From Candidatus Methylomirabilota bacterium (GTDB lineage: Bacteria > Methylomirabilota > Methylomirabilia > Rokubacteriales > CSP1-6): a stretch of DNA of 15,558 nt. Numbering within the stretch: position 1 is the first letter of the stretch; each line of letters opens with the position of its first letter. A program made the translations under genes and the position numbers. This document shows positions 3,595-12,159 of the stretch, one piece after another. The notes beneath the pieces were generated by a model, which worked only from the letters and a program-made list of their open reading frames with translations, ran no database searches and was not told the DNA's origin. The stretch lies in the NCBI GenBank assembly GCA_046726415.1, contig JBKPAK010000113.1, forward strand, positions 1 through 15,558, read 5' to 3'.

Positions 3595-7602
<4,008 letters not shown>

Positions 7603-7926
7603 ATGGAGGCACGTGCAGCAGACATGAGGCCCCGGATGAGAATGGGCATGACCGAGCCACGCGCGCCTCGGACAGCCCATCTGCGGTCCGAACTGACCTC
7701 ACGGCACCCGCGACAAACGGAGCCACGGGTACCTGGAGCGGCCCACCCGCGGTCTGAACCGGGCACCCGGCACCCGCGACAAACGCTGCCACGGGTACCT
7801 GGAGCGGCCCACCCGCGGTCTGAACCGGGCACCCGGCACCCGCGACAAGCGCTGCCACGGGTACCTAGAGCGGCCCACCCGCGGTCTGAACCGGGCACCC
7901 GGCACCCGCTACAAAGGAGAGTGTGA
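7603..7926 (+). CDS. Hypothetical 107-aa Arg/Pro/His-rich tandem-repeat ORF filling the rpoB-rpoC gap
   Basis: ATG immediately after the rpoB TGA and TGA immediately before the rpoC ATG, in the same frame; four 22-aa repeats. Atypical A/T-ending codons and no recognisable domain. Confidence 0.4.
   Translation: MEARAADMRPRMRMGMTEPRAPRTAHLRSELTSRHPRQTEPRVPGAAHPRSEPGTRHPRQTLPRVPGAAHPRSEPGTRHPRQALPRVPRAAHPRSEPGTRHPLQRRV
7651..7914 (+). repeat. Tandem repeat (VNTR-like), 4 x 66 nt
   Basis: Units start at 7651, 7717, 7783 and 7849. By manual count, unit 2 vs 3 has 2 differences, unit 3 vs 4 has 3, and unit 1 vs 2 has 16; no indels and no spacers. Confidence 0.97.
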
Positions 7927-10900
7927 ATGCTGACGGATCGGCCATTCGGCAGCCTGATCAGAGAGGAGAAGCCGTCCCGCGATCTGTGGGGCATCCTCGA
8001 TCGGCATGCGAAGCCCATCACGTTCGACTCCATCCGCATCAAGCTCGCCTCGCCCCAGAAGATTCGCGACTGGTCCCACGGCGAGGTGAAGAAACCGGAG
8101 ACCATCAACTACCGAACGTTCAAGCCGGAACGCGACGGTCTGTTCTGTGCGCGCATCTTCGGGCCGACCAAGGATTACGAATGCGCCTGTGGCAAGTACA
8201 AGCGCATGAAATTCGCGGGGGTGGTGTGCGACAAGTGCGGGGTGGAAGTGACGCGGGCCCGGGTGCGCCGCGAGCGGATGGGGCACATCGAGCTGGCCTC
8301 CCCAGTGTCACACGTGTGGTTCTTCAAAGGGCTGCCTAGCCGCATCGGCCAGCTCCTGGACATGTCCCTGCGGGATCTGGAGAAGATCCTCTACTTCGAG
8401 GAGTATGTCGTTCTCGATTCGCGCATCAACGGGGTCAAGAAGCGGGATCTGGTCTCCGTCGACCGGATGCGGAAGCTCCAGGATGAACACGGTCCAGACG
8501 CCCTCAAGGTGGGGATGGGCGCCGAAGCCATTCGGGAGCTGCTGCGCGACCTCGACCTCGACGGCCTCGCTCGCGATCTGCGGGCGCAGATGCTGGGCGA
8601 GACCTCCGTCCAGAAGCGCAAGAAGATCGTCAAGCGACTGAAGGTGGTGGAGGCCTTTCTCAAGTCGGGCAACCAGCCGGACTGGATGATCCTCGAGGTC
8701 GTCCCGGTGATTCCCCCCGAGCTGCGTCCCCTGGTGCCGCTCGACGGGGGGCGCTTCGCCACCTCAGACCTCAACGACCTCTACCGCCGCGTCATCAACC
8801 GGAACAACCGGCTGAAGCGGCTGATCGATCTCAAGGCCCCGGAGATCATCATCCGCAACGAGAAGCGCATGTTGCAGGAAGCCGTCGACGCCCTCTTCGA
8901 CAACGGGCGGCGCGGCCGGGTGATCACCGGACCTAACAATCGCCCCCTCAAGTCCCTGTCCGACACCCTCAAGGGCAAGCAGGGGCGGTTCCGGCAGAAT
9001 CTGTTGGGCAAGCGCGTCGATTACTCCGGGCGCTCGGTGATCGTGGTCGGTCCCTACCTCAAGCTGCACCAGTGCGGGTTGCCCAAGAAGATGGCCCTGG
9101 AGCTGTTCAAACCCTTCATCCTGCGCAAGCTCGAGGATCGCGGCATCGCCTCCTCCATCAAGGCGGCCAAGAAGTACGTGGAGAAAGAGCGGCCGGAAGT
9201 GTGGGACATCCTCGAGGACGTGATCAAGGAGCACCCGGTCCTCCTCAACCGGGCCCCCACCCTCCACCGCTTGGGCATCCAGGCGTTCGAGCCCATTCTG
9301 GTGGAAGGCAAGGCCATCGAGATCCATCCCCTCGTGTGTACGGCCTTCAACGCCGATTTTGACGGCGACCAGATGGCCGTCCACGTGCCGCTCTCCATGG
9401 AGGCCCAGCTGGAGGCCCAGTGCCTCATGCTGTCGGCCAACAACATCTTGTCCCCCTCGAACGGGGCCCCGCTGGCCGTGCCCACCCAGGACATGGTGCT
9501 GGGGATCTACTACCTGACCAAAGAGCGCCTGAGCTCTCCCGAGCATCCGGTGCGCGGCGAGGGTCGACTCTTCGCCGACGCCGAGGAAGTTCGGGTGGCC
9601 TACGACAACGAGGATGTCGATCTCCAAGCCCGCATGCGCGTGCGCTGGAATGGCACGACCATCGAGACCACGGTGGGGCGGACCCTCTTGAACGAGATCG
9701 TCCCCGAATCGCTGCGCTTCGTGAACCAGGAATTGAAGAAGAAGCAGATCACGGATCTGGTGGCGCGGTGCTACAACAGCCTCGGCAACGAAGCGACGGT
9801 GGCGTTCCTCGACGAGCTCAAGGACATCGGGTTCCGCTACGCGACCCTGTCCGGACTCAGCATCGGCATCGACGACATGCACGTGCCTCCCGCCAAGGAG
9901 CGGCACATCAGCGGTGCCCGGCGCGAGGTCAACGAGGTCGAGCAGCAGTACCAGGACGGCGTGATCACCAACGGCGAGCGCTATAACAAAGTGGTTGACA
10001 TCTGGGCCCACGCCACCGAGTTGATCGCCGAGGACATGTTCCGCGATCTGGAGGCGGGCGAGCAGGGCGGGGAGTTCAACCCCATCTACATGATGGCCGA
10101 CTCCGGGGCCCGCGGCTCCAAACAGCAAATCCGACAGCTCGCTGGCATGCGCGGGCTCATGGCCAAGCCATCGGGGGAGATCATCGAGACTCCCATCACC
10201 TCGAACTTCCGCGAGGGGCTCACCGTGCTGGAGTACTTCACCTCCACCCATGGCGCCCGCAAAGGGCTGGCCGACACCGCGCTGAAGACGGCGGACTCCG
10301 GCTACCTCACCCGGCGGCTGGTCGACGTGGCCCAGGACGTCATCGTCAGCGAGTACGACTGCGGCACCGTGAAGTTCATCGAGGCCACCCCCCTGGTCGA
10401 GGGTGGCGAAATCATCCAGTCCCTCCGCGACCGCATCCTGGGCCGAGTGACGGCGGAGGACGTTCGCGATCCGCTCACCGGCGAGATCATCGTGCAGGCC
10501 AACAACGAGGTCACCGAGGAGCTGGCCCAGAAGATCGAGGAGACGGGGCTGGAGCGCGTGCGCATCCGGTCGGCCCTCACCTGCGACACCAAGCGCGGCA
10601 TCTGCGTCATGTGTTACGGACGCAACCTGGGCTCGGGCCGTCTGGCCGAGCTCGGTGAGGCGGTGGGCATCATTGCCGCCCAGTCCATCGGAGAGCCGGG
10701 GACGCAGCTCACCATGCGGACCTTCCACATCGGCGGGACGGCCAGCGGTCGCGTCGAAACCAAGCACGAAGCCAAGAACGCCGGGACGGTCAAGCACCAC
10801 AACCTGCGCACGGTGGTGAATCGCGACGGCGACCTGGTGGCCACCAACCGCAACGGCGAGATCATCGTGATGGATGACCGAGGGCGCGAACGCGAGCGCT

Positions 10901-12159
10901 ATCCCGTCGTGTACGGCGCCAAGATCAAGGTCAAGCCCGAGCAGCGAGTGAAGGCGGGGACGGTGCTGGTGGAGTGGGATCCCCACACCACCCCCATCCT
11001 CACGGAATTCACGGGCAGCGCGCAGTACGTGGACATTGTCGAGGAGCGGGAGGCCCAGGAGGCGGCCAAACGCGGAGAGGCCGTCAGCGCCACCGTTCGC
11101 GAAGAGATCGACGAGGTCACCGGCCTCGCGCGTAAAGTGATCATCGAAGATCCCAACGCGCGCTTGCAGCCGGGCATCGTCATCCTGGCCCCCGACGGCG
11201 AACGCACGAGCGGTCCTCGCGAGCGTCAGCGCTACCCGCTGCCGGTGGGCGCCCACCTGCTGGTGGCGGACGGCCAAGACCTCTTCGCCGCGGACATCAT
11301 TGCCAAGATCCCGCGGGAAACCACGAAGACCAAGGACATCACCGGTGGTCTGCCGCGGGTGGCCGAGCTGTTCGAGGCCCGCAAACCCAAGGAGCAGGCC
11401 ATCATCACTGAGATCGATGGGCGGGTGGAGATGGGTGGCTTCGTCAAGGGCCAGCGGAAGATCATCATCCGCGCCGACAACGGCGAGGCCAAGGAGTATC
11501 TCATCCCGCGGGGCAAGCACATCAGCGTGCACGAGGGAGACCGCGTCAAGGCCGGCGAGGCTTTGATGGACGGGTCGCCCAATCCCCATGACTACCTGGC
11601 CGTGCTGGGGGATCGCGAGTTGCAGCGATATCTCGTGAACGAGGTGCAGGAGGTCTACCGCCTGCAGGGCGTCACCATCAACGACAAGCACATCGAGATC
11701 ATCGTGCGCCAGATGCTGCGGCGCGTGCGCATCGAGGAAGTGGGCGACACCGACTTCGTAGTCGGAGAACTGGTCGACAAGTTCGTCTTTCAAGAGGAGA
11801 ACGAGCGCGTGCTGAGCCAGGGCAAGCGGCCGGCCACCGCGCAGCCCATTCTGTTGGGGATCACCAAGGCATCTCTGAGCACCGATAGTTTCATTTCGGC
11901 GGCGTCCTTCCAGGAGACGACGCGGGTGCTCACCGAAGCCGCCATCTCCGGCAAGACGGACGAGCTGCGGGGGCTCAAGGAGAACGTCATCGTGGGTCGG
12001 CTCATCCCGGCGGGGACCGGGCTCAGCCATTACACCCGGGTCGAAGTCCTCACGCCCGGGGGCGAGGCCGTGAAACCGCTCGACCAGGTGCTGAGCCTGG
12101 AGCCACTCCCCGATGAGGTGGCCGACGGTGAAGACGGCTCCGTGGCGGCCGCCGTCTAG
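7927..12159 (+). CDS. rpoC: DNA-directed RNA polymerase beta' subunit (1410 aa)
   Basis: [13 protein letters not shown], Zn finger [12 protein letters not shown], catalytic NADFDGD (9349-9369), bridge helix [24 protein letters not shown], trigger loop [21 protein letters not shown] at 7914-7919. Confidence 0.99.

Follow-up and report, generated by a model that had tools for sequence, protein, structure and literature searches.

Mycobacterial interspersed repetitive units (MIRU) were reportedly described by Supply et al. in 1997. The available portions of two accounts present them as units of 40-100 bp, dispersed as well as tandem, which lie between the genes of polycistrons in the orientation of those genes, vary in copy number and show a -4 nt coupling to the downstream start (PMC12548453, PMC3184786). 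The same portions tell of an internal open reading frame (ORF) whose ends overlap the neighbouring genes and of tetranucleotide direct repeats (PMC3184786), the latter seen where filled and empty sites are compared (PMC12548453, PMC3184786). Here we describe a repeat of similar anatomy in a 15,558-nt stretch of DNA from a Candidatus Methylomirabilota bacterium (assembly GCA_046726415.1, contig JBKPAK010000113.1); this whole stretch is called the window. Between its rpoB and rpoC genes, which encode the β and β′ subunits of RNA polymerase, lies a 107-codon ORF that is almost certainly not a gene, being instead a repeat array of a dispersed family. We consider it probable that the array consists of four copies of an approximately 65-nt element whose built-in reading frame bridges rpoB to rpoC.

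Like MIRU, the element comes in units of 65 or 66 nt, with 37 copies at about 16 loci of the own genome (7.6 Mb in 352 contigs, 67.5% GC; iterated nhmmer, E ≤ 0.01) and 65 matches in G117, a near-complete genome that was scored more deeply. It lies between co-directional genes in the sense orientation, less regularly so in G117, where several copies have no same-strand ORF upstream. The ends of its internal ORF are joined to the neighbouring genes (the 3′ end in 42 and the 5′ end in 32 of 70 arrays, in what we call the family frame), 4-nt direct repeats distinguish filled from empty sites (ATGA at the locus C151, GGAG at rpoB-rpoC in G023 as against G017), and tandem copy number varies among close relatives. 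Unlike MIRU, the element is housed in the phylum Candidatus Rokuibacteriota and not in the Actinomycetota, and in the window it stands between rpoB and rpoC with its 66-nt units fused into one ORF, its junctions are flush (0 nt) instead of -4, and the duplicated tetranucleotide is GGAG, the core of a Shine-Dalgarno (SD) sequence. We therefore speak of a likeness of anatomy, by which the element would work as MIRU do, and claim no homology.

Natural rpoB-rpoC fusions exist in Helicobacter and Wolbachia, and the window genes likewise stand in one frame, but two stop codons are kept and relatives do not preserve this relation of frames. Miniature inverted-repeat transposable elements (MITEs) are matched in small size, non-autonomous appearance, high copy number and short target duplication; unlike them, the element has no apparent terminal inverted repeats (no pairing was predicted) and is commonly amplified in tandem. 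The available portion of one source treats repetitive extragenic palindromes and bacterial interspersed mosaic elements (REP/BIME), together with other hairpin-forming repeats, as short, GC-rich and present in many copies between operon genes (PMC3184786). Our element is also short, GC-rich and repeated in many intergenic positions within operons, but it has no conserved hairpin (0 pairs in 26 units, z-score -1.05), keeps a fixed orientation and carries a reading frame. Leader or upstream ORFs that deliver ribosomes by termination-reinitiation, the 'bicistronic design', are covered in part of another source (PMC12548453); the short ORF described here would similarly have as its sole role to end at the start of the next gene, and differs in being carried by a repeated, apparently mobile element multiplied in tandem. 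The literature searched, which was largely outside subscription journals, yielded no description of such repeats in Rokubacteria and no 'MIRU-like' usage. The family is MIRU-like and apparently undescribed.

The three reading frames rpoB, 107-codon ORF and rpoC follow one another on the + strand without a single intergenic nucleotide, ATG 7603 being flush with the rpoB stop and TGA 7924-7926 flush with the rpoC ATG at 7927. From 3595 to 12159 they make up 8565 nt, or 2855 codons, and the hexamer TGAATG stands at both joints (7600-7605 and 7924-7929). The ORF product would contain 23 Arg, 19 Pro and 8 His and no Lys, Phe, Trp, Tyr, Cys, Ile or Asn, and its last codons hold the rpoC SD. The main points had been given in the preliminary description of the window and agree with our recalculation. 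The C-terminus of rpoB aligns to its end in most of 28 relatives, and rpoC aligns from residue 1 in 28 of 28.

Within the spacer, Tandem Repeats Finder (TRF) reports a repeat of period 66 with 3.2 copies and 95% matches (7702-7915). A fourth, more diverged copy starts near 7651 (blastn self match 7651-7767, 84.6%), and when anchored on a common pentamer the four units stand in register at spacer offsets 48, 114, 180 and 246, differing from each other by a few bases. Unit 1 is the most diverged and the nearest to the single copy of same-genus genomes; it has the canonical ATGAC start (7648-7652), then one extra codon. Unit 4 ends with GCTACAA, a conserved motif of the family, and the tetranucleotide that is duplicated at every boundary between units is GGAG. 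In the window, the units are read in the family frame (MTEPRAPRTAHLR...). The 66-nt length being divisible by 3, a unit without stops is enough to keep the whole array open, and with their internal ATGA boundaries lost and their length at 66 nt the four units fuse into one frame. The three ATGA motifs upstream of the array look like truncated unit starts; C90 and C143 offer stubs of 9 and 13 codons for comparison.

Features of the rpoB-rpoC region of the window (nucleotide positions of the window)
Feature	Position	Strand	Basis or remarks
rpoB (RNA polymerase β)	3595..7602	+	1335 aa; TGA stop 7600-7602; six Rpb2 Pfam domains
107-codon ORF, entire rpoB-rpoC spacer	7603..7926	+	ORF list, sequence
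5′ part of spacer	7603..7650	+	ATGA motifs at 7624-7627, 7636-7639 and 7648-7651, each read in frame as Met
Repeat unit 1	7651..7716	+	blastn 7651-7767; nhmmer 7656-7716; alignment
Repeat unit 2	7717..7782	+	TRF period 66; nhmmer 7722-7782
Repeat unit 3	7783..7848	+	TRF; nhmmer 7788-7848
Repeat unit 4	7849..7914	+	TRF; nhmmer 7854-7914; R1 match 7850-7916
rpoC SD segment	7914..7926	+	GGAG at 7916-7919, then GTG TGA
rpoC (RNA polymerase β′)	7927..12159	+	1410 aa; five Rpb1 Pfam domains

Many loci of the own genome are arrays of 2-6 units, with periods of 65, 66, 63 or 51-55 nt. All 16 adjoin an open frame on the same strand that is 100 or more codons long and has a GC content at third codon positions (GC3) above 0.80, 13 of them on both sides. 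In a canonical unit the upstream TGA lies within an ATGA whose ATG opens a 22-codon frame (MTPRAPR.GHPR...), and the TGA of this mini-ORF lies within a further ATGA, where the following unit or else the downstream gene begins. Six 22-codon mini-ORFs succeed one another without a break at C103:7309-7680. Between atpH and atpA (identified by Pfam), four units of 66 nt are fused into a single ORF of about 107 codons which overlaps both genes by ATGA. This array is read in a different element frame from the window ORF, a finding that speaks for a bridge kept open and not for any specific peptide.

A sequence-only model of the element, R1, finds matches in 78 of 151 sampled genomes of the order: 74 of 126 in one family, f1, 3 of 21 in its sister family f4, where matches are weak (E near 3e-4), and 0 of 3 elsewhere. 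At E ≤ 1e-5 there are matches in 57 of 93 f1 genomes and in 0 of 57 genomes from ten other families of the phylum. Some f1 genera lack the element in the genomes searched. The 78 genomes hold more than 1,700 matches, a lower bound because no more than 33 candidates were scored per genome, so that per-genome counts near 33 are themselves lower bounds. These tallies, like the 30-locus set used below, take in the unpublished genomes G011, G096 and G071; no statement rests on them alone. As judged from this distribution, the approximately 65-nt dispersed repeat appears specific to the family f1 of Candidatus Rokuibacteriota. The named rpoC loci nearest to that of the window, at 93% and 91% amino-acid identity, come from metagenome-assembled genomes of this phylum.

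The element brings with it a 4-nt duplication of its landing site, ATGA at most sites and GGAG at rpoB-rpoC. At C151 the own genome has two units between two ATGA; in G002, G007, G015 and G024 the genes overlap by a single ATGA, giving an empty-type site in four of five relatives, and in G001 a 27-nt remnant lies between two ATGA. At rpoB-rpoC, the empty site of G017 is a 13-nt spacer (stop-GA-GGAG-ACTGCGA-ATG), the filled site of G023 shares these flanks and has a GGAG on either side of the element, and in G007 only the two element ends remain, again between two GGAG. With the SD core as the duplicated tetranucleotide, each unit boundary in the window is GGAG-like and the last one serves rpoC. 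The earlier suggestion that TGAATG is a target duplication was thus correct in spirit and wrong in its letters, the right-hand TGAATG occurring also in relatives whose 14-50-nt spacers show no full-length element copy. Copy number is variable at short distance: three genomes of the genus have 4, 1 and 1 units at rpoB-rpoC and 4, 2 and 0 at atpH-atpA (where G002 reads TAAATG). At the tgt locus of G001, an internally deleted copy still reads ATGA, 13 codons, ATGA.

On our own reading the unit consensus is open in each of its three forward frames, openness being cheap at this GC content, and the frame control therefore used junctions instead of openness. We pooled 70 arrays, namely 14 from the own genome, 29 usable ones among the best loci of 30 genomes and 27 from G117; arrays flanked by less than 300 nt were excluded, as were the overlapping loci L193 and L201-L203. 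A 3′ junction was counted if the first stop after the core lay no more than 30 nt from the element end and was overlapped (-4 or -1) or abutted (0) by a start which led, directly or via at most three short hops, into an ORF 80 or more codons long. The two remaining frames gave 9 successes out of 140 at the 3′ junction and 13 out of 140 at the 5′ junction, as against the 42 and 32 out of 70 for the family frame (Fisher values 5.5e-17 and 5e-9, respectively). The same 3′ geometry is reached with several spellings, ATGA (-4), TAATG or TAGTG (-1) and TGA|ATG (0), which is harder to explain by plain inheritance of one end sequence. G117 alone, whose loci are not best-of-genome choices, gives 12 of 27 against 2 of 54 on the 3′ side.

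The preliminary description had proposed, among other options, a translational-coupling relay that preserves β:β′ stoichiometry, and it is plausible from the sequences that such a relay fits the element family. In this scheme, ribosomes that end rpoB would restart at ATG 7603, translate along the array and come to a stop next to the beginning of rpoC, where the SD at 7916-7919 and the adjacent ATG would recapture them for rpoC. With such a relay rpoC would stay coupled to rpoB and ribosomes would cover the 324-nt insert, leaving no long naked mRNA in an essential operon, and the array peptide would be a by-product without function. Whether the frame of the array is really used in this way seems to us a nearly even question, tilted slightly towards doubt. 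A bolder idea, which we regard as improbable, is that the element is a mobile 'portable coupler' which settles on stop-start junctions or SD sites, with copy number as a heritable dial. If this were true, each added unit would weaken or delay reinitiation, and unit number would tune β:β′ and ATP-synthase subunit ratios between strains.

In 28 relatives of the same order the rpoB-rpoC spacer is 13 to 253 nt long, and the rpoB stop is TGA, TAG or TAA. Its length is a multiple of 3 in 7 of the 28, and 2 of these 7 are stop-free in the rpoB frame; the spacers of the two same-genus genomes hold one unit each, measure 137 and 125 nt, and both break the frame. Such frame-breaking lengths, which the preliminary description had named among the findings that would refute its reading, refute a conserved gene but not a relay, because relatives rebuild the bridging ORF in other geometries. 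The element is present in seven spacers (G000, G001, G002, G023, G024, G066 and G117), and six of these have a strict bridging ORF, which in G000, G002, G066 and G117 follows the family frame up to a stop flush with rpoC. In G002, G066 and G117 a GTG that overlaps the rpoB stop (GTGA) opens 43, 57 and 52 codons, respectively, up to the flush TGA; the figure of 43 codons is a hand translation, the bridging ORF itself having been confirmed computationally. As rpoB of G000 ends in ...TCC TGA, a GTGA overlap is impossible there, and an ATG follows the stop directly. G001 has the same rpoB end, also with ATG next, and its 47-codon ORF runs in another frame and stops 7 nt inside rpoC, while G024 bridges from GTGA to a TGA 4-6 nt inside rpoC (end read by hand).

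How far chance accounts for these bridges differs from genome to genome. Requiring a start within -4 to +3 nt of the rpoB stop and a stop flush with or overlapping the rpoC ATG, a bridging ORF of the window type is expected in 0.4% of first-order Markov sequences, in 1.6% if the last 20 nt are kept and in 4.6% under a tandem-preserving null. The corresponding expectation is 3-8% for G001 and, with GTGA fixed, 62% for G002 and 49% for G024. Given these values, and given that two of three frames end at the rpoC start anyway (GTG TGA ATG CTG ACG), the case for selection on a bridging ORF at the rpoB-rpoC locus alone, as far as sequence can make it, is suggestive and not strong.

Several observations weigh against the reading of the array as a bridge by design, beginning with the cheapness of openness mentioned above. 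The G001 atpH-atpA array and the C151 remnant have lengths incompatible with the frame, the rpoB-rpoC copy of G023 has no start codon near the rpoB stop, and C103:44102 and C189 carry an in-frame TAG 17 and 6 nt before the gene start; the relay is thus not conserved everywhere. Since rpoC is preceded by its own strong SD, it may do without coupling. On the 5′ side G117 taken by itself shows no enrichment (5 of 27 against 9 of 54), and since the enrichment in this genome is found at the 3′ side but not at the 5′ side, the robust property of the element is its coupling to the downstream start. We stress that the counts pool copies related by descent, that the 30 best-of-genome loci were chosen by a model containing ATGA at both ends, and that gene boundaries were taken from long high-GC3 ORFs and not from gene calls; for these reasons the Fisher values overstate the evidence. 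Finally, the junction properties could come from a master copy plus target choice instead of selection at each site.

The alternative that survives best, possible but in our view unlikely, is a neutral repeat expansion, in which the array is tolerated junk, open through GC-richness and the 66-nt unit length, with rpoC translated from its own SD and 7603-7926 left unread. The strong SD at 7916-7919 speaks for it, and so do the single-locus chance of up to 4.6% under the tandem-aware null, the ORF GC3 of 0.64, the absence of a bridging ORF in G023 and the G001 atpH-atpA array, which is frame-incompatible yet keeps an SD-like AAGGA. Two antisense frames are also open across the spacer, and openness alone is thus weak evidence in a stretch of 68-70% GC. 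Against neutral expansion stand the asymmetry between frames at the level of the family (42 of 70 against 9 of 140) and the internally deleted G001 tgt copy which has retained its two ATGA and 13 codons. Different stop-start overlap solutions moreover give the same geometry. At rpoB-rpoC, G000 and G001, without GTGA, have ATG after the stop, and G002, G024, G066 and G117 have GTGA.

We also considered that copy number and exact ORF length are an assembly artefact of near-identical units, which would be compatible with the other readings and which we judge quite improbable. In four public soil-metagenome runs, overlapping contig pieces (7489-7844) bear out the left joint and units 1-3: record 7 of X1 (7489-7733, 1 difference) and record 20 of X3 (7491-7778, 6 differences) read past the rpoB stop and enter units 1-2, and pieces from X2 and X3 cover 7736-7844. 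No contig of these runs spans the whole array or covers the last unit, 7854-7909 being almost uncovered, so that the copy number of four is not independently confirmed; parts of the array without contig cover prove nothing. Two arrays of the family do lie at contig ends (C39 and C169), as an artefact would have it. Against it stand the few base differences by which each unit can be told from the others and the overlap of contigs from different runs across 7489-7844; any whole number of 66-nt units would in any case preserve the frame.

In one X3 contig, from a relative of about 87% identity, the rpoB stop at 7602 is joined with 5 other letters to 7907, at the final 20 nt of the spacer. This short spacer is a natural variant, from a soil sample of the same kind. 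Six metatranscriptome runs contained a fraction of 0.07-0.09 of the sampled sequence words.

That the ORF encodes a new small basic protein binding RNA polymerase or nucleic acid, as had been offered as a second option, is very improbable and largely refuted. The ORF is complete and flush with both genes and its product is Arg- and Pro-rich, as such a protein might be. Nevertheless, a search of proteins of 58-188 aa gave 0 homologues among 318 candidates at E ≤ 0.01, and the 107-aa product has no Pfam family. GC by codon position is 0.79/0.68/0.64 in the ORF, as against 0.66/0.38-0.40/0.89 in rpoB and rpoC, so that the coding GC3 signature is missing, and entropy by codon position across 26 units is 0.86/0.75/0.91. 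Same-genus genomes hold one unit, in other frames, and the atpH-atpA array is read in a different element frame. Homologues in the size range searched, coding composition and a conserved length and frame, by which a small protein gene would be recognized, were thus all absent. As for the third option, an array serving as linker for double UGA readthrough to a β-β′ fusion, it has in our opinion next to no chance: three ORFs share one frame and the 78-nt spacer of G023 is in frame and stop-free apart from the rpoB TAG, but the window frame is interrupted by two TGA, the rpoB stops of relatives vary among TGA, TAG and TAA, only 7 of 28 spacers are multiples of 3 (2 of these stop-free), and the same-genus spacers break the frame.

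A structured RNA, an attenuator or a REP-like element was also considered for the spacer and rejected. There is no Rfam match at the array, the only one in the window above gathering thresholds being a tRNA at 384-457; the single-sequence fold of the spacer is not better than shuffles (z-score -1.05); RNAalifold predicts 0 pairs on 26 units; and 7300-8200 contains no terminator- or promoter-like site. The TACAAT-like motif at the 3′ end was rejected as a promoter, the downstream ATG overlapping it. An origin from tRNA, suggested by a TTCGA-like motif, did not hold, pairing being inconsistent between copies.

If the array is what we favour, a bridging MIRU-like element, an apparent new gene inside the most conserved bacterial operon becomes a member of a recognisable element class, and the MIRU principle of a junction-inserting repeat with a coupled mini-ORF would extend to an uncultured soil phylum. 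For annotation, ORFs of such arrays should not be called proteins, and the N-termini of genes downstream of element sites may be element-derived. Copies of the family differ naturally in junction type, copy number and frame, and these many variants lend themselves to testing termination-reinitiation against distance.

Some copies of the element have further peculiarities. At C281:26371-26557 and C111:14166-14221 the downstream genes, whose identities were judged by eye, seem to start with element-derived codons (MTPRAPRPG..., MTPRAPCLMIQG...), and the element may donate N-terminal extensions or alternative starts. Five G117 copies (L179, L183, L188, L178 and L197) have a shared A-rich motif (roughly AATCGGCAAGA) upstream, sometimes with TTCAAT farther up, and no overlapping upstream gene before them; they may represent a longer subfamily or a promoter-proximal form with the mini-ORF as leader ORF. 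The arrays at the contig ends C39:1-141 and C169:1-109 are made of a shortened unit of 51-55 nt. The repeat probably breaks the assembly there, and the two ends may belong together.

The gene cluster of the window comprises a tRNA, secE, nusG, rplK, rplA, rplJ, rplL, rpoB and rpoC and, further on, fusA (Pfam, Rfam). On the minus strand, ORFs at 7545..8108 (187 aa) and 7574..7858 (94 aa) are open over the spacer; the former overlaps the array and the rpoC start, and an alternative-frame ORF at 7923-8339 (+) likewise overlaps the rpoC start. We take the ORFs at 7545-8108 and 7923-8339 as spurious, which is typical at this GC content. In the sister family f4, seven loci (L018, L022, L023, L025, L026, L028 and L029) have an rpoB-rpoC spacer of 136-139 nt with a different, well-conserved GC-rich sequence, which is not the f1 element and in which two palindromes stand out immediately ahead of the rpoC SD; this sequence might represent a processing site or a structured RNA. 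A second tandem family in the own genome, of 60-63 nt with a GC-rich palindromic core, is found at C15:22120-22241, C30:20804-20980, C112:36260-36393 and C145:9752-9882, and the whole-genome TRF list contains 275 arrays, among which periods of 30-36 are especially common.

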